Positions 1,744-51,512 of a stretch of 64,000 nucleotides of DNA are shown in pieces. Numbering within the stretch: the first letter of the stretch is position 1; each line of letters starts with the position of its first letter. The position numbers were made by a program, and so were the translations under genes. The notes under the pieces are model-generated. The model had not been told where the DNA came from. It did not search any database and saw only the letters and a list, made by a program, of their open reading frames with translations. Source of the DNA: Candidatus Obscuribacterales bacterium (lineage in GTDB: Bacteria > Cyanobacteriota > Vampirovibrionia > Obscuribacterales > Obscuribacteraceae); assembly GCA_965228855.1 (NCBI GenBank), contig CBDDIJ010000002.1:448001-512000 (forward strand), in the 5' to 3' direction.

Positions 1744-1797
1744 GGCCGGTCCGGCGCCAAGCGAAACTGCAATGCCAGTTCTTCGCTTGTCGCCCTC

Positions 1798-2072
1798 CCA
1801 GATTTTTCTACTATACAAGCTAGTCTATGTTATTAGCGCCAGTCTTCTTTTCGGGCACTTCCAAATTTGCCTACTATAGAAGCCAGTCTGAACTATTAGC
1901 GCCAGTCTTCGTTTCGGTCACTTTAGAGTCTCAAGCTTACGCGCTGTCTATCCCTCGTTGACGGATCAGATCTTCCTACTATACAAGCTAGTTTAAATTA
2001 TTGGCGCCAGTCTTCGTTTCTGTCACTTTTAGAGTCTCAAGCTTACGCGCTGTCTATCCCTCGTTGACGGAT
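1798..2072 (+). repeat. three imperfect tandem copies beginning at a CTACTATA box (locus 1, left arm)
   Basis: Units start at ~1798, 1861 and 1966, with boxes at 1808, 1871 and 1976. All share (A/G)GCGCCAGTCTTC; copies 2 and 3 also share TAGAGTCTCAAGCTTACGCGCTGTCTATCCCTCGTTGACGGAT. Confidence 0.95.
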
Positions 2073-2102
2073 ATTCAAAAAAGCGGCAATGAGGGATAGA
2101 CA
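2051..2102. promoter_or_regulatory. 52-bp dyad element, locus 1
   Basis: TGTCTAT-CCCTCGT-TGACG-GATATTCAAAAAAG-CGGCA-ATGAGGG-ATAGACA; flanking boxes at 1976 (+) and 2194-2201 (TTTAGTAG, -). Confidence 0.85.
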
Positions 2103-2425
2103 GGCGAGCTGATATGCAGCCTCCGAGCTATAGGCAAATCCCCGAACTCCTGCTCGGTAGGGGAACCTCAGCTTAACCGTTAATACTATGCTCTTTAGTA
2201 GGCAAAGTGGCGGGTTTAAAAAGTTCAGCATAGGCCCCGACTTACATCAGGAGCGGTTTTAATCCGCCGCTGAGTGTAAGTCGGGGGCTGCTGAGGCAAC
2301 AGCGCAATGCGTATTTCGCGGGCATGGCGCGCGAGATCGTTTCCTGCTGCCAATCCTCAGTAAGAGCACTTTAGTGCCTCGTGCGGGCGCGATTTCCAGC
2401 CGGAAATCGATTGCGACTGAAGTCC

Positions 2426-2977
2426 TTAGCCCAGCATGACCGCAACTGCGGCATTGCGCCAGGGGGAGCCGAACTCGAATGCGTTTTCCGGCTGATGCGC
2501 GACGTCACCATCCTGACGGAACCACAGGCTGTTGCGGCTTTCGCGGCGGAACTGCAGCTGTTTTCCGTTGAGAAGGCGAACGTGACGCTCGCGCTCCGTA
2601 CGGTCGCGGGTGAAGTGCGACTCGACGACGATGCCGATCGGGAAGAAGATTCGCTCGCGCACGACGAAACTGCCGTCGAGGAATCGGATGGAGATCGAGC
2701 CGGCGACGTTCTCCTTCGAGCCCGAGGGCACGACTTCGATGGTCGCACAGAAAGTCTGTCCGTCCTCGGACGTCCAGACGTTGGTGTCGGCTTCGCGGCT
2801 GTAGGTGACGCCATCGGTGTCGACGAAGCGGTTCGGGATGCCGTTGTCGTCGTATCCGATTTGGCGCGCTTTGCCGTCAGCATAGCGAACTTCGCCGATG
2901 AGACCGTTGAGGCGGCAGGTGCCAGCCGGCAGAACGGTCAATTGAAACTCGTTAGAGTATCCTCTGTTCTTAGACAT
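2426..2977 (-). CDS. hypothetical protein (beta-rich)
   Basis: ATG at 2977 preceded by GAGG; GC-biased codons; stem-loop downstream at 2234-2288. Confidence 0.65.
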   Translation of the reverse strand: MSKNRGYSNEFQLTVLPAGTCRLNGLIGEVRYADGKARQIGYDDNGIPNRFVDTDGVTYSREADTNVWTSEDGQTFCATIEVVPSGSKENVAGSISIRFLDGSFVVRERIFFPIGIVVESHFTRDRTERERHVRLLNGKQLQFRRESRNSLWFRQDGDVAHQPENAFEFGSPWRNAAVAVMLG

Positions 2978-3618
2978 ATTAGTCCTCGCTTTGTTCAGGT
3001 GAATAGGCCGAAGATTGACACCGCAGGTTACGCGGTCACGAAACCTGGGCATCTTTGGTTACCCCGGAAAGTGTCGTCAGAGGTGTCCAGAAGCTCCGTG
3101 AGCTCGTACGACACCTGAGTGAACCAGAACCTCCAATCTACGAACGCGCCGACCAATCCAGAAGCTGATACAGCCCGTGGAGAGATTGGTTTTGTTGCGG
3201 TGCAGATAGGGGTTCGAGTGCGGAAGAGACCTGGAGAGGTTTGAGATGAGAAGCACTCACAACTTATGAACCGGGCGGGCTGCTGAACAATCTTTCTTAC
3301 ACTGCATAAACGCAGTGTGTACGCTGATTAAGCGCATGCGCTAGCGTTTCAGGTATTTTTAACAGTTCCGAAAACAGTTGTAGATGCTGCTATAGACGCC
3401 TTTTTTAAGCATTTCTTCCAAACCGTGATCGATTGACGTTTCAGGCAGTTGCGCCTGAAATCGTTGATGGTGAGCGCTTTTAGCAACCTGTGCTGAAACT
3501 AATACAAATTGCCCTGGCCGGAGTTCGCTCTGCAAACGCAAAAATATCCAAAGCAAATATTTTAGACCACTCTCGCGCTAATTAACACGAGCTCGCGAAG
3601 CTATCAGATCCAACATCC

Positions 3619-3647
3619 TTGACAACGGCGTAAAGAAAGCTTAGTAA
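3619..3647 (+). promoter_or_regulatory. possible sigma70-type promoter for the 3997 gene
   Basis: TTGACA-N17-TAGTAA; the -10 match is weak. Confidence 0.35.
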
Positions 3648-3996
3648 CCCTGGTTCTTGGAGCTAAACATCGCTAGGTTCTGAGTATCAGTTTTCTGTTT
3701 CAGCTTTAAGAACTTCGCTCCGTAAACCGTCCCCTCAACTCCATCTCAAACCACCGCACGTGAAGTTCAGCTTCGCGGCAGTACACGGGATGAGTTGGGA
3801 CTTGTCGTGACGGTACGCGTGTCGTGGATCTGACGAGCTGCATCAGAACTGTCGTGGAAACGGGCTCCGAATCGAACCGTGTTGTGCGGTCACGAGCGGT
3901 CCCAAGCGTGAGTCGGATTGACCATCCGGCTTTTGTCCATTCACAGGTCGAGCTGAACCAATCTCACAGCTCACTACGAGAGGAAACTCTACTTTT

Positions 3997-6060
3997 ATGA
4001 ACATCACATCCGCTGATTCGGGCAAGCCTGCCAGCTTGCCAACCCGCATCATCTCGGCTGTCGTCGGTGGTGGACTCGCCTACATGGCGGCGTCTTACTT
4101 CGCGGCCCTGCCGATCGCCCTCGTCGTCGCGGCTCTGGTCGCTGCGGTCGGGCTCGTCTCGCCCAAGTGGCTCCTCTTCCCGGTCGCCGGTGTCGTCGTG
4201 CCGGCTTACCGGCTCGGCAAGTACCTCTCCGGCAAGGCCTACCACGGCATCTTCCCGGGAATCTTCAACGCTCTCGCCGGACTGGCGTCCTCCGTCGCCG
4301 CAGCGATGGCAACGGCCACCTACGTCGGCTGGGCGAACGGCTTGTCCGTCCTCGTCTGGTTTCCGGCGTGCTGCATCGCATTCGTGGCCACGCTGTTCAT
4401 CATCGAACCCGCGGTCTACCTGGTCATCCTGAAGCCCGCCTGCGACCTTCTCGAGGCGATCTGGGACTGGACCCGCGACGTGCTGAAGAAGTACGCCAAG
4501 CCCTTCTTCGCCGGCATCGTCAACGCCACCAAGCTCCTGCCCGGCTCCAGCCAGCTCTGGGCCTGGGTCGAGAACAAGGAGAAGGGTGCGCAGTGGGTCG
4601 ACGGTTTCATGGGCTTCGTCACGGTCATCGGCTCGCTGGGCCTGACCGCCACCGTCGCCTACGCCGTCTTCAACCTCGTCGCCCCGTTCACCGCGCTCCT
4701 CGGCGTCTCATGGCTCGTGACCGGTTCCACCTGGTTCGTCGCAGGTGTCGCCGCCATCGCCGTCATCGGTGTGCTGTACCAGCTGATCGACAAGGGTGAA
4801 CTGCCGTTCGTCGCCACCGCGCTTTCGGGCGCCGGTGTGTACGCCATCCAGCCCGTCGTCGCCTCGCTCGGCTTCGGTCTGATCGGCAACATCGCCATCA
4901 GCGCTGCCGCCTTCGTCCTGTCAGTCGCCTACGTCTACCCGGCGGTGCACGGTCTGCTCAAGACCGGTCTCATCAAGGCGATTCTCGACGGCGTGAAGAA
5001 GCTGGTGGAGAAGACCTACGACGAGCAGGACAAGGACTTCCGCAAGTTCTTCGCGCACGTCGTCACTCCGGTGGTCACCCTGATCGCCGCAGGCGTCGTC
5101 TTCTGGGCGCTGTCGTTCTACTCGCTGCCGTTCGCGCTCGTCGCTCTCTTCGCGGCGGTCACGGCGGTCACTACCTACGTCGGCGTCGGCGAAGCCTTCG
5201 ACGACTTCCCGACCACGATCGCCACGAGCGTCGTGCTCTCCCTCGCGGCCGGGTTCGGTGGCTGGTACTTCTTCGCCGAAACCAGCCCGTACATCCTGTG
5301 GCCGTCCCTGGTCGCCCTGGTCGCCGCCACGTTCGCGGTGATTCTGCCGATCATCTACCTCGGCTTCCGCGCCGTGACGTTCCCGATCGCCAAGCCTGTC
5401 GGCGCCTCGCTTGCCGCCCTCAACAAGAAGGCGTACAACGCGGTTCGCGACCTGACCAAGTGGTGGGACAAGAACGTCATCGAGAAGACCTACGAGGACC
5501 GCAGCGACTACAAGGGCTCGTTCCTGCACATCTTCAACGCCGGCGTTCTCGCCCTCGGCATCTGGACCGCTCTGCCCCTCACGGCGGGCTGGCTGGGTCT
5601 GCCGGGCTGGGCGATCATCGCGGGTCTCGTGGCTTCCGGCTACATCGTGTACATGGTGCTGGGCCGCGTGCTGCTGTCGGTTGGCGTGGGAGCGGTCGGC
5701 GTCGCCGCTGCTGTCGCGTCCTTCGCCGGCATCACCTGGGAGCTCTATCAGGTCGACCCGTCCAAGTGGTGGCTCGCTGCGCTCGTCGCCGCGACCTTCA
5801 CGAGCGCCATCGGTGTGGTTGTCGTCCCGGTTCTGCTGCTGGGCGTCAAAACCATCGGCGGCTGGCTCATCACCCCGGTCGGTAAGGGCTTCGGCGCTGT
5901 CTACGACTTCGCCTGGGCTCGGTTCGAGGTGATCTGGGACGCCTTCGTCTGGGTGTGCAAGTTCGTCAACAACTGGCTGTTCATGCCGATCATCCGGCTG
6001 CTCGGTGGCATCATCAACGCCATCGTCGACGCCTGGAACAGCATGTTCGGTCGCAAGTAA
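3997..6060 (+). CDS. large polytopic membrane protein with internal repeats
   Basis: 687 aa, many hydrophobic helices, very strong GC3 bias; repeated KTY(D/E)..D....F.H motif. Confidence 0.85.
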   Translation: MNITSADSGKPASLPTRIISAVVGGGLAYMAASYFAALPIALVVAALVAAVGLVSPKWLLFPVAGVVVPAYRLGKYLSGKAYHGIFPGIFNALAGLASSVAAAMATATYVGWANGLSVLVWFPACCIAFVATLFIIEPAVYLVILKPACDLLEAIWDWTRDVLKKYAKPFFAGIVNATKLLPGSSQLWAWVENKEKGAQWVDGFMGFVTVIGSLGLTATVAYAVFNLVAPFTALLGVSWLVTGSTWFVAGVAAIAVIGVLYQLIDKGELPFVATALSGAGVYAIQPVVASLGFGLIGNIAISAAAFVLSVAYVYPAVHGLLKTGLIKAILDGVKKLVEKTYDEQDKDFRKFFAHVVTPVVTLIAAGVVFWALSFYSLPFALVALFAAVTAVTTYVGVGEAFDDFPTTIATSVVLSLAAGFGGWYFFAETSPYILWPSLVALVAATFAVILPIIYLGFRAVTFPIAKPVGASLAALNKKAYNAVRDLTKWWDKNVIEKTYEDRSDYKGSFLHIFNAGVLALGIWTALPLTAGWLGLPGWAIIAGLVASGYIVYMVLGRVLLSVGVGAVGVAAAVASFAGITWELYQVDPSKWWLAALVAATFTSAIGVVVVPVLLLGVKTIGGWLITPVGKGFGAVYDFAWARFEVIWDAFVWVCKFVNNWLFMPIIRLLGGIINAIVDAWNSMFGRK

Positions 6061-6161
6061 ACGCGAAAACGCCGAGCGCTCGCAAGAGTAGCTAGCTAAA
6101 CCGCGTGCGAAGGCGGGCAGGCATCGGGATTCGTCCCGATGTCCTGCTCTCCCTTCGTCTC

Positions 6162-6283
6162 CCAACTCTCCCTACTATATGCCGACATAATCCGTAATTC
6201 CCCGACACGATTTTGATAGGCGCCAAATCTTTCTACTATACGCCGACATAATCCGTAATTCCCGACAAGCCTTCGGATAGGCG
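6162..6283 (+). repeat. two tandem ~61-bp copies beginning at a CTACTATA box (locus 2, left arm)
   Basis: CTACTATA(T/C)GCCGACATAATCCGTAATTCCC at 6172 and 6233; follows a stem-loop at 6117-6147. Confidence 0.95.
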
Positions 6284-6318
6284 TTCTTCGGCGTACCGGC
6301 TTCAAGCCAACCACCCTT

Positions 6319-6370
6319 TGGCAATGGTGCGTAGACGATTTTCGCGAATTCCGTCATAGCCAGATAGACA
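6319..6370. promoter_or_regulatory. 52-bp dyad element, locus 2a (left outer box degenerate)
   Basis: TGGCAAT-GGTGCGT-AGACG-ATTTTCGCGAATTC-CGTCA-TAGCCAG-ATAGACA. Confidence 0.8.
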
Positions 6371-6488
6371 GCGGCGACTTTTTACGCCCCTGCCAGGGTT
6401 GCAGAATCATCCCAACCCCGGGTCAGCTCAACGTTTTGAGCCGGAACAGGCTTATCATACTGTATAGTAGTAAGATTTGGTCGCCTTT

Positions 6489-6540
6489 TGGCAATGGTAC
6501 GTAGACGATTTTTGCCAAATGCGTCGTAGCCAGATAGACA
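6489..6540. promoter_or_regulatory. 52-bp dyad element, locus 2b (duplicate of 2a)
   Basis: TGGCAAT-GGTACGT-AGACG-ATTTTTGCCAAATG-CGTCG-TAGCCAG-ATAGACA. Confidence 0.8.
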
Positions 6541-6772
6541 GCGGCGACTCTTTGCAGCCCTGCACGGGTTGTGGAATCGCCACAATTCCCGGTCATCTCG
6601 ACGTTTTCAGCCCGAAGATAGCTACCAAGCCGTATAGTAGTAAGATTTGGTCAGAATCATCCCAACCCCGGGCCAGCTCAACGTTTTAAGCCGGAACACG
6701 CTTATCATGCCGTATAGTAGCAAAAGTTTTGGGAGAACCGGGCGCGAGAGAGTGCGCGCCCGGTTCGGAAAA

Positions 6773-7654
6773 CTAGTCGATGTCGATCACGATGGCGGTG
6801 GCGTTGTCCTTGGTGGCGTCCGCCAGAGCGTTGTCGATGAGCGCCTGCACGCGTTCTTCGACTGTGCCCTCACCACCGAGGATGGCTGCGATCTTGCTGA
6901 GCTCGCTGTAGTCAGTGAGCCCATCGGAGCAGATCAGATAGCGATCGCCCGGCTCGATCTCGATCGTCTTCTCTTCCCATTCCGGCAGCTTGTGCTCGCC
7001 GTTGACGCACTTGTGCAGCACGTTGCGGTACGGACTGGTGGCGATTTCCGCCTCGCTGAGCTTGCCTGCCTTCCACAGGAAGACAGCCACCGAGTGGTCT
7101 TCGGTCAACTGCTCGAGCACTCCGGCGCGCAGTCGGAAGAGCGGCGAATCGCCGGACCAGCCGACGTGCAGTTGGTTCGGGGCGACACGGCGAACCGCGG
7201 TAACTGTCGTGCCGAAGCGCTTGCGGCGCGGGTCCTCGGCAACCAAATCGCGCATGCGCAGGTTCGCGAGCGTGACGGCCGCCTCGAACCAGTTTGGTTG
7301 CTCGAGATCCGTGTCCTGGAATGCGCCGATCGCAGCAGCAGAAGCCTCCTCGCCGCACGCCATGCCGCCCATGCCGTCGGCAACGATGTAGGCGTCCCCC
7401 TTGAGCAAGAAGGCGTCCTCGTTGTTCTCGCGCCCGCCGATGTGTGTGCCACCAGATGCGGTGATCTTCATGCCGGTCCTCTTGAACTTCTCGTTGGATT
7501 TCCGCTTCGCAAGCAGAAATCGGAACACGTATCCGCCGACGACCAGCGCGGCGACAGCCACGAGAATCGCCGAAGCGGATGAGAGAAAACCGTTGGCGAA
7601 CAGCGCCTGAAAAGCGCCGCTGTTTGCCAACAAACAATCGATGTTGCTCGTCAT
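6773..7654 (-). CDS. PP2C/PPM-family Ser/Thr phosphatase with N-terminal membrane anchor
   Basis: Motifs GGRENNED, VADGMGG, GDS, LTEDHS, CSDGL, DNAT. Confidence 0.93.
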   Translation of the reverse strand: MTSNIDCLLANSGAFQALFANGFLSSASAILVAVAALVVGGYVFRFLLAKRKSNEKFKRTGMKITASGGTHIGGRENNEDAFLLKGDAYIVADGMGGMACGEEASAAAIGAFQDTDLEQPNWFEAAVTLANLRMRDLVAEDPRRKRFGTTVTAVRRVAPNQLHVGWSGDSPLFRLRAGVLEQLTEDHSVAVFLWKAGKLSEAEIATSPYRNVLHKCVNGEHKLPEWEEKTIEIEPGDRYLICSDGLTDYSELSKIAAILGGEGTVEERVQALIDNALADATKDNATAIVIDID

Positions 7655-14469: not shown

Positions 14470-14473
14470 ACCA

Positions 14474-16791: not shown

Positions 16792-16905
16792 CGCACCCAG
16801 CGCCACGGTTCTTTTACAAGCCCGCAACAACTGCGGGCTGAATTCTTAACACATGCTCGGCGCCCCGATGGTGCCGAGCGCATTCGAGAAAGTGAGAACC
16901 CAACC

Positions 16906-18060: not shown

Positions 18061-18079
18061 CTTCACTGGAGACATTCAC

Positions 18080-36141: not shown

Positions 36142-36430
36142 GGTGCCTCCTGATAGGAGGGCCAGGTGCAAGATTGGAAATGAATGGAACCTACGAATCG
36201 ACAGCCGGAGCTGCTTTCATCGCATGCTCACATCCGGGCATTCGTCTGAACGCCCTTCTGCACCGGCCCTACCGTATCTTCGGCATGGGATGTCCTCCTT
36301 TGAGTTCGGTCATATAGAACCTTGGGTTGAGGGTTTCGGTTTCGCACAATCCGGCTCCGCACGGAAGATGGCGACAGTTACCCGTCGTCACCCTTCCGTG
36401 CAGAAACCGAATCACGCAGCCGGACTGCGC

Positions 36431-38155: not shown

Positions 38156-38238
38156 GGTATTGTCCTCAAGTTAAAGTTGCGGCAAAGGCGCGACACCACA
38201 TCTGGTATCGCGCCTTGCCTTTGTTGAAACTAGAAGTC

Positions 38239-39855: not shown

Positions 39856-40249
39856 GGTATTGCTCCTAAAGTTGAATTCTTCGGTTGCGACCCCTTTGGA
39901 TGGGGACAGGGTTAGAAGAGTGGTCTAGAGCGTTGAAAACATGAGGTGACGGCTTGCCACGCGCATGGGAGTCAAAGGATGGCCGCAGGTTTGGACAACT
40001 GCCAGCCATTCCTTGACACCACATGTGGTGACAAGGTCCAGTTCGGGATGAAGCGTGCTCTAACGCCCGACCCGTTACGCACGAGTCGACTGGAACCACC
40101 TGAGGGAAGGCGCACTTGACGATGAGCGTCCGCATCTGCTCAGCGACAACTACGCCCTCCCGACATCCGGCACCGGTCTGATTGCTCAGAACCGGCACCG
40201 AATGTGGTGGCTTAGGTCGACTGGCAGACTGTTGCCGATGCTACCGTAT

Positions 40250-41389
40250 TTAGCGCTGCTCCCAGGGCCGCGGGACGAGCTGCTCGATCTGCTTGAGCAG
40301 TTCGCGATTCTCCTCATCCGAGAGCGTGGCACCGTGGTACAGCACCCGTTCGCACTTCGTCAGCGCACTCTCGATCTTGTCGAGCTCGGGGTCACCCTCG
40401 AGCCGGTCGCGCACCTCGAGGAAGGTGGCGGGTTCGATCGGCACGCCCTTGGTCGCGCCCAGATAACGCCGGAACGCCGACGCGATCTGCTTGTAGTGCC
40501 TGTACTCGAAGCCTTCCGCCTTCGCTTCCGCGAAGACCTTGTCGAAGACCTTCCAGGCAGCCGCCTTGGGAGGCAGCACCTTGCGCGGACGCACGCGATT
40601 GATGTACTTCGCCACTTCGATGCCGGGCAGGAGCCCGATCATGAAGATGGCGAGCGCAATCACGGGGATGATCATCCAGGACGAACCGAGAGGCTTGGCC
40701 TCCAGGTCGCCCTCGAGCAGCGCTTCGCCGTTGTCCGCCGTGGGCGAACGCGAGACGACGAAGTCAGGCGTGGTCAGGCGCTTGAAGTTGGGCGTCTTGC
40801 CGTCGGGCGCAAGCTCGGTGGCGTAGCGCAGGTCGAGGTTGAACACCACGTTGTCCTTCGGCACCCAGGTCACGACCGTGAGGTCGAGCCGATAGAGCAC
40901 CTTGCCGTTCTGCAGCTTCTGGCTGCGAACCACCGCCGGGGCAGCGAGTTCGAAGTCGGAGCCCTCGAAGCCGAGGACTTCCTGCTTCAGCGACGTGAAG
41001 TCGATCGTGACGTTCGGGTCGACGGCGATCAGCACGACCAGGGGAATCCGGTCGCCGATGCGGTAGCCGAAGTGGCGCGCGTTGCCCAGTCGAATCTCGA
41101 CCTTGCCGTCTTCGCAGACTTTGCGGACCGGATTCTGGGGCTTGGGAGGCTCGGGCGGCTGAGCATTGTAGCCGCCGCCGTCCTCGGGATATTCATAGGG
41201 GTAGCCGCCGTACGCCGGCGCCTGTGCCCCCGATGCGTCGGCCATGACACCGCAGGCGGTGCTGGCCTTGCTCTGGGCGGAGCCCGGACCGGCAGCCTGC
41301 GCCGCCGCATCCTGAGCCATCGCGGTTGCTCCGACGGCGACCGTCAGAGCGAGAACCAGAGCCTTCAATCCAAACAGTTTCGTTTTCAT
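40250..41389 (-). CDS. exported/membrane-anchored protein (BatD-like position), paralog of 22527..23642
   Basis: Signal peptide, HFGYRIGDRIP, KRLTTPDFVVS, one TM. Confidence 0.78.
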   Translation of the reverse strand: MKTKLFGLKALVLALTVAVGATAMAQDAAAQAAGPGSAQSKASTACGVMADASGAQAPAYGGYPYEYPEDGGGYNAQPPEPPKPQNPVRKVCEDGKVEIRLGNARHFGYRIGDRIPLVVLIAVDPNVTIDFTSLKQEVLGFEGSDFELAAPAVVRSQKLQNGKVLYRLDLTVVTWVPKDNVVFNLDLRYATELAPDGKTPNFKRLTTPDFVVSRSPTADNGEALLEGDLEAKPLGSSWMIIPVIALAIFMIGLLPGIEVAKYINRVRPRKVLPPKAAAWKVFDKVFAEAKAEGFEYRHYKQIASAFRRYLGATKGVPIEPATFLEVRDRLEGDPELDKIESALTKCERVLYHGATLSDEENRELLKQIEQLVPRPWEQR

Positions 41390-41401
41390 GATTTTGGCTC
41401 C

Positions 41402-42346
41402 TTACCGACGGTGTCCAGCGAACAACCGCATGAGTTTGGGATAAGCGGCGACGCCTTCTTCGGTCGAAACAACCGTCCAGTCGACGTGCGCCGAACGGAA
41501 GAACTCGAAGAGGGCAGTCTCATGCCGTTGGAAGTTCTCGGCGAACTTGGCGCGATTGGCCTTGCTCAGCCAGATCGAACGGCGCTCGCCAGTGAGCAGG
41601 TCCTGGAAGGTGTAAACACCGAACCCGCTGGGGAGCTCGCGTTCACGCAGGTCCTGCACACAGATGCAGACGACGTCATGCTTGACGGCCGTCCGCTTCA
41701 GAAGCGTCTTCTCCTCGTCCGTGAGGTTGAGGAAGTCCGAGATGATGAACACCAGGGACCGGCTCTGTCCGCTGACGGCCTTGAGGGCCTTCATCAGACC
41801 AGTGGTACCGTCCTTGGTGTCTCCACCGCGGCGGGCGGCACGCTCGATCGCCGAACCTTCGACAATCGAGGCAAGCGCGGGGAAGAGCATGACCTTGGCG
41901 CTGCGCGCCGGGAGGTAACGCTCGACCGCCTTTTCCGAGTAGGCGATGATGCCGACGCGGTCGCCGGTTTCGTCCGCCGACTTGATGATCGAACCGGTCA
42001 GTTCGCCGGCAAGATGCCGTTTGATGGTACGGAACGAACCGAACTCCATCGTCATACCGGTGTCGACCAGGCAGTACATCTTCACGTCACGCGGTTCCCG
42101 ATAGAAAACCGTGCAGACCGTCTGACCGCCCGTTTGTGCCGTGGCGTGCCAGTCGATCGAACGCGGATCGTCACCGGGCTCGTAAACACCGCGAGAAACA
42201 AGATCGTATCCCGTATTCCCGCGCTTCTTGCCCTTACGGCCAGCCCCGGAGGGCATGGCAGTCGAGCTGCGCCAGGTAATCGGGATCGGATGAGAAACGA
42301 CCCACTTAACGAGTTCGCGGACCGTTTCCCGTGTATTTGTCTTCAT
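41402..42346 (-). CDS. DUF58-family protein
   Basis: YEPGDDPRSIDWHATA, GDRVG, IISDF, DLRERELP. Confidence 0.92.
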   Translation of the reverse strand: MKTNTRETVRELVKWVVSHPIPITWRSSTAMPSGAGRKGKKRGNTGYDLVSRGVYEPGDDPRSIDWHATAQTGGQTVCTVFYREPRDVKMYCLVDTGMTMEFGSFRTIKRHLAGELTGSIIKSADETGDRVGIIAYSEKAVERYLPARSAKVMLFPALASIVEGSAIERAARRGGDTKDGTTGLMKALKAVSGQSRSLVFIISDFLNLTDEEKTLLKRTAVKHDVVCICVQDLRERELPSGFGVYTFQDLLTGERRSIWLSKANRAKFAENFQRHETALFEFFRSAHVDWTVVSTEEGVAAYPKLMRLFAGHRR

Positions 42347-42445
42347 GTGAATACTCCGGAAGCGGTTTGAGTTAGTTCAGCCGAGAGCGGCGATCACTAA
42401 ATAGCGACCGCCGCTCTGGCTTGGTAATAAGTACCGAACGACCGG

Positions 42446-43498
42446 TTACTTGCCCTTGGCGCGACCGACCACCGGGACCTGGGACTCGACCGCCGTGATG
42501 AACGTGTCGGTCTGGAAGCGATCGAACGTCGCTTCCTGAGTCAGGATGAGGCGGTGACGGACGGCGTCGCGGTAGACCGACTTGACGTCATCCGGCTCGA
42601 TGTGAGTCCGGCCGTCGAGCCAGGCGTTGCAGGCGGCGCCCTTCTGCACCCAGATGCCGAGACGCGGCGAGGCACCGTAGGCGATGCGCTCTTCGAACGA
42701 CTTACCCTCGGCGTCGCGGATCTTGCCGAACGACGGGTCGGTCGGACGAGTGGCGCGCATCAGGTCGACGATGTACTCGCGGATGGCGTCCGAAGCGTTG
42801 TCGACGACCTGCTGGACTTCCGTGCGGATGGCGCGGAGGTCGGACAGATCCATGACCGGCTCGACCTTCTCGGTGGCGTTGCGACCGTGGACCTGGGTGT
42901 TGGCCAGGACCTTGATCTCGTCGGCGCGCGAGACGTAGCCCATCATGATCTTGAACATGAAGCGGTCGAGCTGCGCTTCCGGCAGAGCGAAGGTGCCTTC
43001 CTGCTCGACCGGGTTGATGGTCGCCATGACCATGAACGGATCGGGCAGCATGATGCGCGGCACGCCGGGGATGTCGGCGAAGCGCTCCTGCATCGGCTGC
43101 AGCAGGGCAGCCTGGGTCAGGGCGATGCCGCGGTTGAGCTCGTCGGCCAGGAGCAGGTTGACGGCCGACTTGTAGTTGGCGTCGACGGCGCCCAGGAGCG
43201 GGCCGGGAACGAAGTCGTACTTGCCGGTGACGGGGTTGAAGACCCGCGTGCCCTTCACGTCGGAGGGCTTCAGGTCCGGGTCGAACTGGATGCGGCCGGA
43301 GGTCGCACCGTCGATGGTCTTCTGCAGGGTGTTGATCATCAGAGTCTTGGCCAGACCGGGCATCGACTCCAGAAGCACGTGACCGTCGGCCATCAGGGCG
43401 AGGGTGAGGGCGCGCTTCACGGGGGTGTAACCGACGATCACCTTGTCCATCTCGGTGGACAGGGCGTTCGCCTTGATAACGAGCTGATTCTTAGACAT
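42446..43498 (-). CDS. moxR: MoxR-family AAA+ ATPase
   Basis: GHVLLE, PGLAKT, RIQF.PDL.PSD, LADELNR, NPVEQEGTF.LPEAQLDRF, GASPR. Confidence 0.95.
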   Translation of the reverse strand: MSKNQLVIKANALSTEMDKVIVGYTPVKRALTLALMADGHVLLESMPGLAKTLMINTLQKTIDGATSGRIQFDPDLKPSDVKGTRVFNPVTGKYDFVPGPLLGAVDANYKSAVNLLLADELNRGIALTQAALLQPMQERFADIPGVPRIMLPDPFMVMATINPVEQEGTFALPEAQLDRFMFKIMMGYVSRADEIKVLANTQVHGRNATEKVEPVMDLSDLRAIRTEVQQVVDNASDAIREYIVDLMRATRPTDPSFGKIRDAEGKSFEERIAYGASPRLGIWVQKGAACNAWLDGRTHIEPDDVKSVYRDAVRHRLILTQEATFDRFQTDTFITAVESQVPVVGRAKGK

Positions 43499-43600
43499 GG
43501 TCGTAATCTCCGTTTGGGATTTGAGAGAAAGGTTGCTACGAAAGAGGCGGACCATCGGGTCCGCCTCTAGAGGTTTGCGTTGGACGAAACACTGGAGTCG

Positions 43601-44677
43601 TTAGCGAACCAGGTCCTTCCTGGGCAAGACTCCTCGGATGAACAAGCCGGTCAGAAGGATGATCGCCAGCCCCAGGGGGTACTGGAAGATCGGATCCTCT
43701 TTGGTCTCGGCTTTGCTTCCACCGAGGGAGGCTGCCCAGCTGATTTTCAGCTCGCCGCCGTTACCCGGATCGAGTGGAAGGTACTCGGCGCCAGACATGG
43801 CGACGAGCTTCGAGAGATTGCTCTCCTCACGGCCGGACAGCGACACCTTGCCTTCCTCCTGGAAGTATCCGGTGAGCTGCCCTTCCTTGTTGTATTCGGG
43901 AATCGGCGACGGCGAAAGCGAGCCGACGCCGACGACGATGAAGCGAATGCCCTTTTCCCGAATCTTCGCGACCGCGTCGGCGAGAATCTTCTCGTCGCCG
44001 GTGAAGCCGCCGTCGGAGAACAGGACGATGACCTGCTGCCGATTGGCGACCTTGTCGCGGTCCAGCATCGCCAGAGCCATGGTCAGACCTTCGGCGTAAT
44101 CGGAACCGCCGCCAGGGGCGTTGCCGACACGAATCCAGTTGTCCATGACCCACTTGGTCGACGTCCAGTCGTCGGTGAGGGGAATCTGCTCGAAGCCGTT
44201 GCCCGAGTAGGTGACGATGCCGAGCTGGTTTCCGATGATCGCAGGCATGACCTGCGTCTGGAGAATCAGCTTGGTGTAGTCGAGGCGGTTGCCGTACGGT
44301 CCCGGCACCAGGTCAGGCGTGTAGCCGTTCTTCGAGGGCATGAACGGGCGGTATTCCTCCGCCGCCATGCTCTTCGAGACGTCGATCACGCCCACGACCT
44401 GCAAGCTCCCCGCCCGAACATTGGTGGGCAGAGACTTGGAGATGGGACCGGCGGCGGCAGCCACCATAAGCGCGACCGCGATTGCCCACACAGAGGCAAT
44501 CGCGACTTCGCCCGCGAACCTGACTGCGCGCGTGTAGCGCGACACCAGCTTCTCTTCGCCGTATGCCGCACGAGCCTTGCGCCGGAGGTCGTACCCCAGG
44601 TAGCAAAGCCCGTACACAGCAGGGACGACCAGCAAGAGCGCTGTCAGGTAGTGCGGACGCAGGAATGTGATATCCAT
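43601..44677 (-). CDS. vWA-domain membrane protein (BatB-like)
   Basis: DVSKSMAAE, APGGGSDY, LFSDGG; clear paralog of 19084..20253. Confidence 0.88.
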   Translation of the reverse strand: MDITFLRPHYLTALLLVVPAVYGLCYLGYDLRRKARAAYGEEKLVSRYTRAVRFAGEVAIASVWAIAVALMVAAAAGPISKSLPTNVRAGSLQVVGVIDVSKSMAAEEYRPFMPSKNGYTPDLVPGPYGNRLDYTKLILQTQVMPAIIGNQLGIVTYSGNGFEQIPLTDDWTSTKWVMDNWIRVGNAPGGGSDYAEGLTMALAMLDRDKVANRQQVIVLFSDGGFTGDEKILADAVAKIREKGIRFIVVGVGSLSPSPIPEYNKEGQLTGYFQEEGKVSLSGREESNLSKLVAMSGAEYLPLDPGNGGELKISWAASLGGSKAETKEDPIFQYPLGLAIILLTGLFIRGVLPRKDLVR

Positions 44678-44689
44678 AGCGTCTTCTCC

Positions 44690-45307
44690 TTACAGAGTGT
44701 TGGGCTTGCCTTTGCCGGGCTGGTCGCCAGGTTCCTGTCCAGGAGCCTGCTTCTTGCCTTGTCCGGGCTGAGGCTTGCCTTTGCCTTTGCCCTTGCCCTG
44801 ACCTTCGGCCTGCTGTTTGTTGTTCTTGAAGAGAAGCTCCAGGTCGTACTTGACCTGCAGGGCTTGCTCCTCCAGGCGAACGACGTCTTCCTTCGTCACC
44901 TGCTCGAAGCCGGGGACGTTGGCATAGTCGTTGCCGGGGTTGAGCCGAAGCGATTCCTTGAAGGCCTCGACGGCGGGCTCAGCCTGCCGGAGTCTCAGGA
45001 GCGCTTTGGCTTTGTGGAACTGCGCGAGAGCCGCACGTTCACGGGAAGGCGCCGGGTACAGGAAGCGCTCCATCCAGGACGACGCCCGGACGCGCTGCTT
45101 GTACACCGCCACGGAACGGTCGAACGCTTCGATCGCGCCCTTCATCCCGTCTTCGTCCTGCGCGGTCTGGTACATGGTGAGACCGACGTTGTAGTACGCC
45201 GCCTGGGCGTCCTGCCACGTCAGAAGGCGGAATCCGAATCCGCCGACAAGCAAGCCGCCGACGAGAATCGCCAGCAGCCACAATCGTGATTTGCTGAAAA
45301 ATTTCAT
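44690..45307 (-). CDS. TPR protein (BatC-like)
   Basis: TM, YNVG, AQFHKAKAL, SLRLNPGN, G/K/Q/P tail; paralog of 18080..19045. Confidence 0.8.
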   Translation of the reverse strand: MKFFSKSRLWLLAILVGGLLVGGFGFRLLTWQDAQAAYYNVGLTMYQTAQDEDGMKGAIEAFDRSVAVYKQRVRASSWMERFLYPAPSRERAALAQFHKAKALLRLRQAEPAVEAFKESLRLNPGNDYANVPGFEQVTKEDVVRLEEQALQVKYDLELLFKNNKQQAEGQGKGKGKGKPQPGQGKKQAPGQEPGDQPGKGKPNTL

Positions 45308-45334
45308 TTTCAGGTTTCTCCTAAAGGTTAGCTG

Positions 45335-46318
45335 TTAGGCGTCCTCGCGGACGAGTGCAGCGGCTACGAGGAAGAGGCAGAGCACGAGCCCGGCGCCAAT
45401 CAGGAAGAACTGATAGATGTCGCGATAGCTCACGGTCTTCTCGACCTCAACACGGGATTTCTCGAGTTCGGAGATCTTCTGGAAGCCGGCCTTCATGTCG
45501 GCGCCGTTTCCGACGACGATCACCTGACCGCCAGTGGCTTCCGTGATCTTGCGCAGGTCGTTTTCCGCATTGGGATTGGACCAGCCGATCGCGAGCGTGT
45601 AGATCTTGATGCCGCCCGCTTGCAACATCGGAAGGAGCTGTTGCATGCGCTCCTCCGGAATGGAGTCCTCACCATCGGTGACCATGATGAGAACCTTCGA
45701 CTGAGCCTGACCGAGCTCCTTGAAGTGGTCGACTGCAGCCTGGATGGGACCGGACTCACTGGAGAAGTCGGTGCCACCGCCGTTGTAGGTGCCGGTGCGG
45801 CCCACGTTCTTGAGCTCGATCACGCGCAGGTCCTTCGAAAGGGGCCAGCTGTAATAGACGCTCGTGTCGAACATGAACAGCGCGACGCGATCACCTTCCC
45901 GTTCCTTGACGAACAGGCTGATCGCCTTTTCGGCGAGCTGGATGCGTTTGACGGTCTGAACCGGTTGTCCAGCCGCATCCTTCACTTCACCAGCGACAGC
46001 GAGCTGGTCCGGGTCAGAAATCTGACCTTGCATCGAACCAGAGATGTCGACTGCGATGATGAAGTCACGAGTAATGATCACCTCTTTCTCGCCGACGTCG
46101 GGCAGCTGCGGTCGCGACATGGCGAGGGCAGCGAGCACGAAGAATGCGACAAGAAGGATCTGAGGCAGACGTCCCACGAGGGGAACGGAACGCACGTTGC
46201 CGTGCATGCCGACTTGCGTGTGCCCCAAAGCTCTCCGGCGCCGGTATGCCAGCCACAAGGCGGGCACAGCCAGAAGCGCCAGCAGCATAAACTGCGGGTA
46301 TGCGAACGTGATGGGCAT
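45335..46318 (-). CDS. vWA-domain membrane protein (BatA-like)
   Basis: FAYP..LL, RPQ, DISGSM, GDRV, GGTD, VTDGE, ISELEKS. Confidence 0.9.
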   Translation of the reverse strand: MPITFAYPQFMLLALLAVPALWLAYRRRRALGHTQVGMHGNVRSVPLVGRLPQILLVAFFVLAALAMSRPQLPDVGEKEVIITRDFIIAVDISGSMQGQISDPDQLAVAGEVKDAAGQPVQTVKRIQLAEKAISLFVKEREGDRVALFMFDTSVYYSWPLSKDLRVIELKNVGRTGTYNGGGTDFSSESGPIQAAVDHFKELGQAQSKVLIMVTDGEDSIPEERMQQLLPMLQAGGIKIYTLAIGWSNPNAENDLRKITEATGGQVIVVGNGADMKAGFQKISELEKSRVEVEKTVSYRDIYQFFLIGAGLVLCLFLVAAALVREDA

Positions 46319-48875: not shown

Positions 48876-50105
48876 ATGGGACTGAGAATCCTTATGCTCG
48901 CCTGGGAATACCCGCCCCGGCTCGTTGGCGGCCTTGCCCGCGTTGTTTGTGCCGTTTCACGTGAACTCGTTCGACAGGGACACGAAGTCCATGTCATCAC
49001 GTCGAACTTCGAAGGCACTGACGAACACTCGATGGACCAGGGTGTTCACGTTCACCGCGTCAAGACCCAGACCGGTCCCAATGGCGCCGACATGGAGACG
49101 CCCGACTTCCTGACCTGGGATGCCAGGCTCAATTTCGGCATTCTCCAGTACGCCATCAAGCTGCAGCTCGAGCAGCCGTTCGACATCGTGCATGCGCACG
49201 ACTGGCTCGTGGCCGACGCTGGCTGGGTGATGAAGTCCTTCGGCGTGCCGATGATTTCGACCATCCACGCGACCGAATTCGGCCGCAACCACCAGTCGAT
49301 CCCGAACCCGAGCAGCAAGTACATCGACGACATCGAGTGGCGCCTGATTTACGAATCGGGCCATGTGATTGTGAACAGCAAGCACATGCACCGCGAGGTC
49401 GTCGACCACTTCCACGCGCCCGCCGACAAGGTCTCGGTCATCCCCAACGGGATCGAACCGGACCGCCTGAAGTGCGACGCCGGCAAGTTCGAGCTTCGCG
49501 AGAAGCACGGCGTCGGCGACGGACCGATGATTCTGTTCGTGGGTCGCCTCGTTCAGGAGAAGGGCATTCAGGTTCTGCTTCAGGCTGCCCCGCGCATCCT
49601 CGAGAAGCATCCCGATGCCACCGTCATGATCGCGGGCACCGGCTACTTCATGGACGACCTGCAGCGCAAAGTCGCGGAGCTGGGAATCGGCAACAACGTC
49701 CGGTTCTTCGGTCACGCCGACGACAAGTCGCTGCCGGAACTCTACAAGATGGCCGACATCTGCGTGGTGCCGAGCCTCTATGAGCCCTTCGGCATCGTCG
49801 CGCTCGAAGGCATGGCGGCTTCCCTGCCGACCGTGACTTCCGACAACGGCGGCCTGACCGACATCATCCAGCACATGGAGAACGGGCTCACCACCTTCGC
49901 CGGCGATTCCGACAGCCTGGCGTGGGGTCTGCTGCAGGTTCTGGACTCTCCGGAACTGGCGGAGAAGGTCGGACAGCGCGCCCGCGCTCACGTGCTCGAG
50001 CACTACTCCTGGGAGGCGATCACCACCAAGACGGTGGCTGCCTATCAGGACGTGATCGAGAACGCGAAGCGTCCGCGCGACATCTCGAGCGACTCGGCCG
50101 AATAA
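48876..50105 (+). CDS. glycosyltransferase family 4
   Basis: WEYPP..VGGL, HAHDW, TIHATE.GR, FVGRL..EKG, PSLYEPFGIVALE. Confidence 0.95.
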   Translation: MGLRILMLAWEYPPRLVGGLARVVCAVSRELVRQGHEVHVITSNFEGTDEHSMDQGVHVHRVKTQTGPNGADMETPDFLTWDARLNFGILQYAIKLQLEQPFDIVHAHDWLVADAGWVMKSFGVPMISTIHATEFGRNHQSIPNPSSKYIDDIEWRLIYESGHVIVNSKHMHREVVDHFHAPADKVSVIPNGIEPDRLKCDAGKFELREKHGVGDGPMILFVGRLVQEKGIQVLLQAAPRILEKHPDATVMIAGTGYFMDDLQRKVAELGIGNNVRFFGHADDKSLPELYKMADICVVPSLYEPFGIVALEGMAASLPTVTSDNGGLTDIIQHMENGLTTFAGDSDSLAWGLLQVLDSPELAEKVGQRARAHVLEHYSWEAITTKTVAAYQDVIENAKRPRDISSDSAE

Positions 50106-50287
50106 ACCGACGCTCAACGGGCGCCACTGCCAGTGGTGCCTGACCGGTAGTGAAGGTCGCTCTCCTCTGTGGCAAAACCGCACGAGAGCGACCTTTGCTT
50201 TCTTTCCTGGAATGCTTCTTCTTTCGCCGAAGGCGACCGACACAGTCGCCTTTCAAATTCGAACGAAACAAACGCAGGATTTCCAAG

Positions 50288-50713
50288 ATGACAACCTTCC
50301 TCAAGCTGCTCGGAAGTGCAATCGGTGCGGTCGTCGGCTTTGTCATGCTCGTCGCATTTCGCGGCATGCTTGCACCGCTTCTCAACGAGGGCTCCGCCCT
50401 CATGATCGCCGTCATCCTCGGCATCGTCGGACTGGCGATCGGTACCACGATCGGCGCCTACGAGAAGGATAACGGTCCGGTCGGCATCCTCAAGGCTAAC
50501 CTCGTGGGCGTCGGCTTCCTGATCGCGATGGCCGTGAGCGTCATCCTCGCGTGGTTCGCCATCACGATGCTGGTCCCGCGCGCCGAACCCCTGACGATGA
50601 CCTGGCTCGGCGCCTTCTCGCTGGTGCGCGCCATCCTCTTCGTCGCCGTCCCGGCAAGCAGCGGTTTCTTCATCGCCGGCAAGCTCGCTTCCACTTCCAA
50701 AACCTCGGCATAA
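50288..50713 (+). CDS. hypothetical 4-TM membrane protein
   Basis: AGGA RBS, hydrophobic ORF, GC3 bias. Confidence 0.75.
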   Translation: MTTFLKLLGSAIGAVVGFVMLVAFRGMLAPLLNEGSALMIAVILGIVGLAIGTTIGAYEKDNGPVGILKANLVGVGFLIAMAVSVILAWFAITMLVPRAEPLTMTWLGAFSLVRAILFVAVPASSGFFIAGKLASTSKTSA

Positions 50714-50723
50714 GGAACTAACG

Positions 50724-51059
50724 ATGCATCAACTCGAGTTCGTCGTGGACCTGCTGGTCTGGTCCTTCCTCAGCGGCTTCGTCGGCGTCGTCGTCGGCCA
50801 GCTGCTCCCCAGCCGCGTGGCCAGCCTCCGGGTTGCCACCTGGATCTTCCTGGCTGCCTGGGCGGTGATCGTCACCACCGCAGTCGTCATGCTCGGTCTC
50901 GCCACATTCGTCGGCGACCCGAACCAATACGTGCCGGCCTGGCTCGTCGCCGGAGCTCTGCTCTCCTACGTCTTCGCCGCCGGCATCACCCGCGGTATCG
51001 ACATCCGCGCCGCCGGCTACTGGCGCTGGTTCCCCCGCACTCCGGTGCTGAAGAACTGA
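50724..51059 (+). CDS. hypothetical 3-TM membrane protein
   Basis: AAGGA RBS, hydrophobic ORF; stem-loop at 51069-51099. Confidence 0.75.
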   Translation: MHQLEFVVDLLVWSFLSGFVGVVVGQLLPSRVASLRVATWIFLAAWAVIVTTAVVMLGLATFVGDPNQYVPAWLVAGALLSYVFAAGITRGIDIRAAGYWRWFPRTPVLKN

Positions 51060-51104
51060 ACTGATACGACGGTGCAGCGAACCCCTTTCGCTGCACCGTT
51101 TCCT

Positions 51105-51169
51105 CCAAATCTTCCTACTATATTCCGGCGTATACGCGAAGACCCCCTACTATATTCCGGCGTATCCGG
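51105..51169 (+). repeat. two tandem 32-bp copies beginning at a CTACTATA box (locus 6, left arm)
   Basis: CCTACTATATTCCGGCGTAT with boxes at 51115 and 51147. Confidence 0.92.
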
Positions 51170-51244
51170 AGATGTCCGGCGAAGCTGCATCGACAGCAGT
51201 CTTAAGACCTGCGACTCCGCGATGGAGTGTGGGAAAGGGCAATT

Positions 51245-51296
51245 TGTCTACGGTACGTTGCCGAAATTCGGCAAATCTGTCTACGCACGATAGACA
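51245..51296. promoter_or_regulatory. 52-bp dyad element, locus 6
   Basis: TGTCTAC-GGTACGT-TGCCG-AAATTCGGCAAATC-TGTCT-ACGCACG-ATAGACA. Confidence 0.85.
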
Positions 51297-51349
51297 AGAG
51301 CAGACGCGTCCGAACAGGCGAAGCGACCCGACCCTCCCGCTGCAGCCCT

Positions 51350-51443
51350 CGCCGCGATTCTATTTATCCTATCGTATATAGTAACATGGCTATTGGCGCC
51401 ACTGTTTCACTTATCCTATCTTTTATAGTAATCAAACCAAAAA
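51350..51443 (-). repeat. two tandem 47-bp copies with a TTACTATA box (locus 6, right arm)
   Basis: TTATCCTATC...TATAGTAA with boxes at 51377 and 51424; stem-loop at 51448-51488. Confidence 0.88.
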
Positions 51444-51512
51444 AAATGAAACCCAAAGATCCGCTGGTGAAGCGAATCCTTGGGTTTCGAAACGGGGAAG
51501 GGCGACGACGGT

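Follow-up and report, generated by a model that had tools for sequence, protein, structure and literature searches.

REP/REPIN sequences and their RAYT (TnpA-REP) enzymes are the closest described system. In the available text of two reports (PMC3337134, PMC1525189), these extragenic palindromes occur by the hundreds and in tandem arrays, are entered by insertion sequences, and flank the gene of the enzyme, each variant of which is paired with its own repeat type. The genome analyzed here resembles this system: it carries 211 extragenic palindromes (hub dyads), some in tandem arrays, and 7 of 7 IS110 copies lie within dyads. Furthermore, a gene for a PLD nuclease with an XRE HTH (PLD-HTH) is flanked by its own, lineage-specific repeats; at 11 of 30 homologous loci, but at 0 of 60 host-gene controls, a double palindrome with 32-35 bp spacing was found at most 450 bp away, while the other 19 loci had no strong double palindrome. 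In contrast to REP/RAYT, the enzyme is not an HUH/Y1 transposase, and PF01797 had no match in genome G000 (95% complete; 6 of 14 controls matched). The hub dyad also differs: it resembles a pair of double-stranded dimer sites whose 5-nt spacers are free, and helical phase links it to another, older site of the host. The PLD-HTH gene, in addition, is multi-copy and patchy. We conclude that the pair appears to work like REP/RAYT, yet does not belong to it.

As in integron cassette arrays, a repeated site lies 3' of gene units of mixed function. However, the hub blocks are multi-gene, occupy both strands, have upstream regions, are interleaved with host genes and are inherited in place. Among the 17 PF00589 matches in G000, two, those inside the region, were scored against the integron integrase cut-off of 265 bits and reached 57 and 44 bits. 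The same 7-bp overlap at flanking sites, a tyrosine-recombinase att feature, was not found (the N7 of paired arms had an identity of 2.21, vs 2.16 after shuffling, in 62 two-armed hubs), nor were the near-identical copies and target-site duplications of MITEs and DDE insertion sequences (no duplication of 5-8 bp at offsets 6-21). TTF-I/Reb1 and mTERF are protein-assisted terminators, with the protein site a short fixed distance past the release point. The hubs contain a box at such a distance, behind hairpins with tails of just 42% T. This box differs from those sites in being bacterial, palindromic and confined to one gene class, and its roadblock role is putative.

The window is the whole stretch of 64,000 nt that was analyzed (contig CBDDIJ010000002.1, positions 448,001-512,000, assembly GCA_965228855.1, Candidatus Obscuribacterales bacterium, an uncultured organism related to cyanobacteria). 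The original prediction, made from these letters, had placed dyads at 2051, 6319, 6489, 27244, 32074, 35535 and 51245, and all seven are there. Likewise, each of the 11 listed block ends has a hairpin, then a CTACTA-type box, then a dyad (Table 1), although the box in the 35845 arm of hub 5 lies 177 bp from the dyad, out of phase. Five hubs are two-armed, in agreement with the predicted mirror-image arms, and the hub at 27244 is one-armed. At the host junctions 10711/10831 and 14413/14474, both box and dyad are missing, again as predicted. The dyad pair of hub 2 is a 170-bp tandem unit. No Rfam match, whether CRISPR array or described RNA family, was obtained in the window at gathering score.

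Table 1. Gene blocks and hubs in the window (window positions).
Feature	Coordinates	Strand	Description
Block ending at hub 1	1051..1743	+	no Pfam match; GC3 0.64, borderline; orthologs in 5 relatives
Hub 1, two-armed	1744..2425		terminator 1744-1795; dyad 2051-2102
Hub 1 boxes	1809-1825, 1872-1888, 1977-1993 (tandem copies), 2184-2200		
Hub 1 part-dyad	1945-1966		with one of the tandem box copies
Hub 1, hairpin of 2426 gene	~2235-2290		
GC-rich block ending at hub 1	2426..2977	-	no Pfam match; GC3 0.78
GC-rich block	3997..6060	+	membrane protein without Pfam match; GC3 0.90
Hub 2, two-armed	6061..6772		terminator; dyads 6319-6370 and 6489-6540; terminator of PP2C gene
Hub 2 boxes	6173-6189, 6234-6250, 6453-6469, 6623-6639, 6703-6719		
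GC-rich block	6773..7654	-	PP2C phosphatase; GC3 0.81
GC-rich block	15577..27057	+	vWA/TPR/MoxR/DUF58 genes and two S41 peptidases; GC3 0.76-0.91
Hub 3, one-armed	27058..27295		terminator; boxes 27131-27147, 27157-27173; dyad 27244-27295
GC-rich block	27734..31933	+	catalase-like and haem peroxidase genes; GC3 0.77-0.85
Hub 4, two-armed	31934..32320		terminators; boxes 31989-32005, 32207-32223; dyad 32074-32125
GC-rich block	32321..33631	-	no Pfam match; GC3 0.71
Two small genes ending at hub 5	34167..35403	+	intermediate GC3 0.67
Hub 5	35404..35844		terminators; box 35452-35468; off-phase box 35752-35768; dyad 35535-35586
GC-rich block	35845..46318	-	second vWA/MoxR/DUF58/S41 operon; GC3 0.75-0.91
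GC-rich block	48876..51059	+	glycosyltransferase and two small membrane proteins; GC3 0.83-0.89
Hub 6, two-armed	51060..51512		terminators; dyad 51245-51296
Hub 6 boxes	51116-51132, 51148-51164, 51367-51383, 51414-51430		
GC-rich block	51513..60903	-	two PrkA AAA proteins, DUF444, SpoVR, small genes; GC3 0.79-0.93

A genome scan, which had been proposed as a check, was performed with a matrix built on the seven window dyads. It gave 212 matches, compared with 0 in each of three column-shuffled matrices, showing that the hubs are real and genome-wide. The 211 dyads form 160 hubs, and 175 dyads lie within ~1 Mb around oriC. Each 52-bp dyad has four half-sites, i.e., two 19-bp palindromes 33 bp apart. 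High dyad numbers are confined to this genome and its nearest relative. The box, a palindrome TACTA-N7-TAGTA, follows the terminators of many GC3-rich blocks in Obscuribacteraceae. Its spacing to the dyad is 69, 80, 92 or 103 bp, in helical phase; these four classes, about 11 bp apart, comprise 13, 111, 106 and 17 arms.

The suggested bias toward 3' ends of GC-rich blocks was upheld: boxes were found at 103 of 170 such ends, 34 of 242 host-type ends of the same region, and 15 of 2621 ends outside it. This rule is strong but not absolute genome-wide, and boxed arms also face 5' ends (21/36 GC-rich, 23/39 host-type). Crude gene calls gave significant enrichment in three genomes (G000, G041, G060); in G082 (5/24 vs 8/90), G002 (6/33 vs 7/79) and G070 (0/8 vs 4/20) it did not reach significance. 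Exact whole-genome box counts in most of 221 genomes did not exceed the reversed control. A pattern search in G002 yielded 2 matches vs 12 control matches. Degenerate Xer-like proteins, a lead for box binders, were not found in the box-bearing G041 and G060.

We favor the explanation, at a probability of roughly 0.55, that two systems of different age meet at the hubs: an old host site and a young partnership of dyad and PLD-HTH. The old layer would be an Obscuribacteraceae host feature, a second class of transcription units often ending in a terminator plus the box palindrome. The box would be a putative protein site 11-19 nt past the hairpin, most likely acting where the transcript ends, as a roadblock or insulator. 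In the young layer, the PLD-HTH protein would bind its own double palindrome as two dimers, as suggested by the flanking of its gene and by co-variation. Facing the same side of the helix as the box, it would nick ~8-10 bp outside the box, near RNA polymerase release; duplication ends and a mutation hotspot point to this site. Nick repair might then copy dyad-plus-arm pieces, producing tandem copies, moving arms and half-dyads between hubs and occasionally carrying a gene cassette, and one dyad type would have swept ~160 sites in this lineage. The dyad is probably now under selection, which suggests that it has become part of how block ends work.

Evidence for the age order comes from the blocks. 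GC3-rich blocks, interleaved with host-type genes and vertically inherited, are present in all seven Obscuribacteraceae relatives sampled, with GC3 about 0.25-0.3 above host genes. In the window, the description of the cargo as GC-rich held for most blocks, while 1051-1743 and 34227-35403 are intermediate (0.64-0.67). Relatives without this genome's dyad have orthologs of the blocks, in conserved order and with GC just as high. Therefore, cargo and box are older than the dyad, and the claim that the dyad docked the blocks is not supported; the missing target duplication and shared 7-bp overlap also speak against it. A recent foreign origin is ruled out, since GC3 remains high at near-saturated silent divergence. 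Ordinary high-expression codon bias is ruled out as well, since ribosomal and elongation-factor genes have a GC3 of 0.52-0.65; they favor CAA, AAA and GAA, codons that the blocks avoid. Pfam scans of 340 region and 47 window proteins (~17 short ones omitted) revealed no virion, packaging or replication genes; holin, amidase and lysozyme were present. Neither of two cargo proteins tested had relatives in viral contigs, a feature expected of a prophage or giant phage remnant.

Together, the GC-rich genes form a coherent catabolic programme: peptidases, FtsH paralogs, TCA and beta-oxidation enzymes (the latter two with host-type paralogs) and a sigma factor of its own. This sigma factor was rejected as a family-wide driver, as it was detected in just 15 of 85 genomes at E<=1e-60. 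No shared promoter motif was found among 164 block 5' ends. The older layer, a vertically inherited class with raised GC in coding and non-coding DNA of one chromosome, allows the determinants of bacterial GC content to be tested directly. It also points to an unrecognized two-stage life cycle in a lineage with no known cultured member. We tentatively raise the further, rather doubtful idea of a second, stage-specific sub-genome near oriC, with its 3' ends marked by a dedicated site and with its own GC regime, to which a once-selfish PLD nuclease was recruited; nicking at transcript release, followed by repair and copying, would reshape and perhaps rewrite its units.

The original prediction had also offered RNA-templated insertion or rewriting of transcript-like units at the box, which could in addition keep the units GC-rich. 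In 85 of 109 arms, 11-19 nt separate the hairpin from the box, which places the transcript end near the duplication point. In line with such rewriting, GC is raised also in intra-block spacers (0.56 vs 0.47) and over ~150 nt of leader, where the rise ends; silent divergence is about half of the host-gene value, block genes were gained or lost at the hub end between G000 and G007, and the genomes of the genus (8 of 8) share a conserved retron-like reverse transcriptase. However, its close orthologs occur in 6 genera only and not in the block-bearing G060, G082 and G070, so no reverse transcriptase tracks the cargo. Moreover, blocks are syntenic at near-saturated silent divergence, show no GC3 gradient in the window and have long upstream regions (median, 667 bp). 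We regard this model as unlikely.

Returning to the two-layer explanation, a dyad-bound enzyme, as had been postulated, likely exists, and the candidate is encoded elsewhere in the genome, outside the window. This stand-alone protein of ~255 aa (PLD-CxxC-XRE HTH; gene C2:103074-103847 in G000) has a dyad on each side of its gene. G007 has a gene of 54% identity, embedded in arrays of a related B-type dyad; a third paralog sits between C-type arrays (46 copies, 11 arrays). At the 11 positive loci, the sequence of the double palindrome differs lineage by lineage. A box was found at most 500 bp from 10 of 30 PLD-HTH loci, compared with 25 of 300 controls, and at the block end orthologous to hub 4 the gene lies just past the end in two relatives. 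G041 has a different dyad in 7 copies, one of them 108 bp after a PLD-HTH gene; the 5 within 260 kb are each 42-73 bp from a box. G042 and G043 contain dyads without a PLD-HTH match. Conversely, G082, G070 and G086 contain boxes and GC-rich blocks without a full-length match, so the enzyme cannot explain the older layer. These sequence associations make it probable that the 52-bp dyad is the element of an undescribed nuclease that binds DNA and spreads copies of the dyad.

By its motif HxKx4Dx6GSxN (intact in 135 of 150 top relatives) and its modeled fold (pLDDT 86.8), the candidate is assigned to the PLD nuclease superfamily, sharing both with Nuc, NucT, Zucchini and PLD3. BfiI, a type IIS nuclease, is of the PLD family. 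The PLD domains of Mokosh MkoB/MkoC and DISARM DrmC were matched weakly, below family cut-offs where these are given. In contrast to these systems and to PLD nucleases, the candidate is stand-alone, has the PLD-CxxC-XRE HTH layout and is bordered by cognate palindromes; the loci examined revealed no partner methyltransferase, helicase or kinase. The ESM Atlas returned generic HTH clusters only, under 0.9. No description of the dyad repeats, the PLD-HTH family or the two gene classes was found in the accessible parts of the open-access literature, which supports the view of an undescribed system. If binding holds, this is a repeat/enzyme partnership of an enzyme class not known for such, guided to a host site by helical phase and not by the sequence into which it inserts. 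The family, which comprises at least 284 sequence clusters, would then allow each HTH variant to be paired with a DNA site straight from the genome.

Alternatively, the PLD-HTH protein or another factor could be purely a transcription regulator, its PLD domain sensing or inert. Dyad and box would then work as a pair (activator/promoter or roadblock) through which the GC-rich regulon is silenced or insulated from the 3' side, and duplications would be by-products of polymerase collisions at strong terminators and of gene conversion among repeats. The helical phasing, the strict conservation of dyad and box, the catabolic programme with its own sigma factor, and the presence of TrmBL2, a chromatin protein with a PLD-like domain, among the fold matches would fit. 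So would the outer half of the G000 box, TATAGT, a -10-like hexamer in antisense orientation. However, family-wide the box conserves TAGTA but not the TA of a -10, and judged by this conservation it is a palindrome rather than a -10 element. The intact catalytic motif, a patchy, multi-copy gene that moves between hubs along with its repeats, and hubs that abut host stop codons without a terminator, never closer than 13 nt, also argue against regulation alone, which we consider possible but not probable.

The young layer is further suggested by duplications and strain differences. As predicted, there is a break-like point at a fixed place just beyond the box, near the expected transcript end: hub arms duplicate from ~8-10 bp beyond the box. 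Hub sequence restarts after 80 of 342 boxes, in 46 cases 11-19 nt from the box outer half, and duplication ends spread across 8-44 nt. In about 120 kb of G007 compared with G000, differences were absent from the dyad core (0/191) and outer box (0/112), compared with 97/1003 in the arm and 21/112 in the 8 nt past the box. The 320 half-dyads are of 264 kinds (block-shuffled minimum, 294); identical half-dyads are paired with different partners, halves having been shuffled between hubs. Between hubs, arms are for the most part unrelated in sequence (mean identity, 0.33-0.35), indicating that most spreading is old or piecemeal.

The proposed comparison across relatives revealed junction variation. 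At one host-host junction, G000 carries a complete hub where G002 and G006 have none. In G007 the B cassette occupies one hub; contig L249 has it at the neighboring hub, behind an A/B hybrid dyad, and G000 lacks it. These positions and the tandem copies come from metagenome contigs, in which repeat arrays can be misassembled. Local copying or excision of blocks, with hubs as origins at which a dyad-bound initiator uses a nick or RNA primer at the box, appears very improbable. A conserved site with a lineage-specific binding locus ~80 bp away does recall pMV158-type origins, the G000 box has the spacing of a T7 promoter (a T7-type polymerase search had no match, and its control search likewise matched nowhere), and blocks show a smaller leading/lagging difference in G/C skew (0.04 vs 0.10-0.15). 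The T/A skew difference, however, is unchanged (0.27 vs 0.26-0.31); cargo thus keeps the chromosomal skew, which leaves local copying unsupported. Furthermore, G000 has neither a Rep_OBD (pMV158-type RepB, PF01719; 1 of 14 controls matched) nor a Y1 transposase match, and a single 91-kb contig of run X3 spans hubs and blocks without an alternative joint, although contigs drop rare forms. Hub 1 differs in strain X6 (joint 2107-2208), and run X6 shows copy-number joints in hub 2 (6586-6667 and 6649). In the two-layer explanation, the putative cut by the PLD-HTH protein would be ~95-105 bp from the dyad, a distance that would need looping.

The dyads, boxes and hairpins of the original prediction were all found in the window, which corresponds to C2:448001-512000, at the positions assigned to them. 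A matrix built from the seven window dyads yielded 212 copies in the genome under study (G000; 8.2 Mb in six contigs) and 0 with shuffled columns. The refined set comprised 211 copies in 160 hubs, and 175 of these copies lie in 77-1,122 kb of contig C2, a stretch in which the GC skew reaches its minimum (~800 kb), with a DnaA-like gene located at 792,753. We conclude that the hub system is real and genome-wide and, as far as searched, undescribed; our literature search found no paper describing it. Each dyad consists of two 19-bp palindromes (TGKCWAY-N5-RWTGMCR) spaced 33 bp apart, with an A/T-rich centre between them. The box lies 3' of the terminator hairpin, and in 85 of the 109 arms the gap between them is 11-19 nt. 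Its distance to the edge of the dyad falls into classes of ~69, 80, 92 and 103 bp, represented by 13, 111, 106 and 17 arms, respectively. Since successive distance classes differ by one helical turn, box and dyad are probably two protein-bound sites sharing one face of the DNA.

The GC-rich gene blocks form a distinct class. With a custom gene caller, GC3 is bimodal in G000. C2:65-1,125 kb holds 740 genes, of which 352 are of the high class; only 18 such genes were found elsewhere on C2, C3 and C5 (C2:1-65 kb, C1 and C4 excepted). These exceptions are GC-rich, without dyads or boxes and with intergenic repeats of a different kind; they are probably foreign, contributed to the assembly by another organism or by a mobile element. 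Pfam scans of the high class revealed peptidases, several FtsH, MoxR-vWA operons, TCA and beta-oxidation enzymes, NAD salvage, transporters and a sigma-70 factor, but no reverse transcriptase, integrase or capsid. A host-type paralog exists for 82 of 329 GC-rich genes. The window blocks have orthologs in the same order and with equally high GC3 in five relatives (G001, G002, G003, G005 and G006), and the window PrkA has copies 75-92% identical in Obscuribacteraceae and Obscuribacterales. Two interleaved GC3 classes were likewise seen in G041, G060, G082, G070, G047 and G086 (host GC3, 0.42 to 0.59), while in the 20 kb examined of G012 nearly all genes were of the high class. Silent divergence was 0.10 in blocks versus 0.19 in host genes to the closest relative, G007, and 0.74 versus 1.51 to G002, thus about half in blocks, yet protein conservation was not higher. 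Block codon use shuns the A-ending codons favoured by ribosomal genes, and leaders and within-block spacers are also GC-richer. We conclude that this gene class is of old standing and stable, and that it is being actively maintained.

In G000 the box, read outward from the dyad, is aTACK-N6-TATAGTAG; in relatives it is the palindrome TACTA-N7-TAGTA. With at most one mismatch, this palindrome gave 118 matches in G000, 36 in G041, 19 in G082, 15 each in G060 and G002, and 8 in G070. Other spacers between the halves gave 0-14, except spacer 10 (3-36), presumably an overlap artefact of TAGTAG. Boxes were found at 103/170 block ends versus 34/242 host ends in the G000 region, 20/42 versus 5/70 in G041 and 9/20 versus 10/83 in G060; the excess was not significant in G082, G002, G070, G047 and G086. 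The G000 dyad had 94 matches in G007, 2 in G006 and 0 in G001, G004 and G021, and none at orthologous hubs. Since box and blocks are kept in relatives without this dyad, they predate it. This reverses the proposal that blocks docked on the hubs: the repeat arrived at blocks already in place, and RNA-templated docking is improbable.

Several observations point to activity at the hubs. After 80 of 342 boxes, upstream hub sequence restarts; in 46 cases the restart is 11-19 nt away, counted from the outer half's first base, versus 13 scattered cases with a shifted anchor. Many duplicated units start at the dyad's far edge. Half-dyads recur with different partner halves, and arms were alike in 8% of 89 recurring half-dyad pairs versus <0.1% otherwise. 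In 120 kb compared, G007 differed from G000 by one replaced arm, dyad hubs at dyad-less boxes of G000, and genes missing from a block's hub end. Metagenome run X6, whose strain is related, showed 7 joints over window 1-10000; 4 fell within the hubs there, including two at window position 6649, 14 nt from the box. Neither target duplication nor a shared overlap between arms was detected at hubs, and the minimum distance from host stop codon to box was 13 nt (44 arms). Over the same 10 kb, X6 is roughly 90-99% identical; sixteen metagenome runs, X6 among them, each contain ~0.2-0.27 of the words sampled from this stretch.

The original prediction placed no candidate enzyme in the window. In G007, a 256-aa gene at one hub is embedded in arrays of a related dyad (B type); its G000 homolog is 54% identical, and the G000 paralogs (5/5) all lie inside the GC-rich region, yet have host-type GC3. 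The protein combines a PLD domain (HxKx4Dx6GSxN), CxxC and an XRE HTH; its predicted structure matches PLD nucleases, and its family comprises 284 clusters at E<=1e-30. A double palindrome (32-35 bp spacing) was present near the gene at 11 of 30 PLD-HTH loci (five G000, one G007, the best from each of 24 other genomes, leaving out four matches to long helicase-type proteins) versus 0 of 60 host-gene controls, and palindromes resemble each other where the proteins do. When G000 spacers were scanned de novo, 39 strong double palindromes emerged, of which 34 have the 33-bp spacing; a C type that surrounds a third paralog was among them. G041 has its own dyad adjoining its own PLD-HTH genes and boxes. 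The B cassette occupies different hubs in G007 and in contig L249. Counting against this link, PLD-HTH matches occur in 46 of 85 genomes (in ~20 of these only partial, mostly to longer proteins), with none in some block-bearing genomes and in two that have dyads. We consider the protein a testable candidate enzyme for the hubs.

Most likely, two HTH dimers would occupy the dyad, the arm between dyad and box would bend, and a PLD dimer would nick on the outer side of the box, close to where the transcript ends; in repairing the nick, the cell would then copy pieces of dyad and arm and, in some cases, the gene. Neither the core of the dyad nor the outer box differed between G000 and G007, with change rates of 10% in the arms and 19% in the 8 nt beyond the box. 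Selection on dyad and box at orthologous hubs suggests host use, for example sharper termination or insulation of blocks; conversion among repeats could also explain the uniformity. Regulation as the sole function is unlikely, if the strongest rival to nicking and repair; local replication starting from the hubs is the least probable of the explanations considered.

The system resembles REP/RAYT, in which each RAYT gene has the repeats to which it is specific on either side (PMC3337134) and REP repeats are IS targets (PMC1525189): the candidate gene is flanked by its own repeats, and all 7 IS110 copies in G000 interrupt dyads. These are of two subtypes, one in the outer and the other in the inner half-site. 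Because no Y1 transposase was found in G000, we do not regard the system as a REP/RAYT member. Nor did hubs or blocks show the defining features of integrons, att sites, MITEs, rolling-circle elements or prophages.

Coordinates of individual features (G000 unless noted)
Feature	Position	Remark
PLD-HTH homolog	C2:103074-103847	A dyad (52-bp type) on both sides
B cassette, G007	hub matching C2:656749	
B cassette, L249	hub matching C2:652729	first dyad A/B hybrid; G000 has the hybrid, gene absent
IS110-type copy	C2:774714	inside dyad
IS110-type copy	C2:858575	inside dyad
IS110-type copy	C2:1120784	inside dyad
IS110-type copy	C2:987926	inside dyad
IS110-type copy	C2:197250	inside dyad
IS110-type copy	C5:861234	inside dyad
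IS110-type copy	C5:1461455	inside dyad
MoxR-vWA-DUF58-S41 operon	window 15577-27057	
Paralogous operon	window 36431-46318	opposite orientation
Aconitase-malate dehydrogenase fusion	L059:9005-12490 (C2:949022-952510)	adjoins citrate synthase; GC-rich class
Xer-like protein	L036:8601-9482 (C2:369829)	GC-rich region
Xer-like protein	L058:2761-3669 (C2:923144)	GC-rich region
Retron-like reverse transcriptase	L098 (C3:2800508-2801410)	behind ~370-bp non-coding stretch
21-gene tRNA array	C3:724518-727973	B-type dyad at 729322
Smaller tRNA cluster	C3:1529761-1530653	
Long hairpin	window 2235-2290	3' region of 2426-2977 gene

At least three more MoxR-vWA-DUF58-S41 operons lie elsewhere in the GC-rich region. 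The two Xer-like proteins are 54% alike, with catalytic residues that by eye appear degenerate; they are 84-85% conserved in the genus and matched in 53 of 85 genomes, with none in G041 or G060. The reverse transcriptase (84-93% identity in 8/8 genomes of the genus, also in five other genera) behaves like a core gene. A second repeated palindrome, with core ACCGATATCGGT, has 44 copies, some of them in pairs with a spacing of 32-35 bp; the copies cluster on C5 and, on C3, in the direction of the skew maximum (C3:0.95-1.63 Mb). Finally, the long hairpin of the window, which has a conserved internal motif, is kept in five relatives (L009, L013, L015, L016 and L017) despite sequence change and is possibly a structured RNA.
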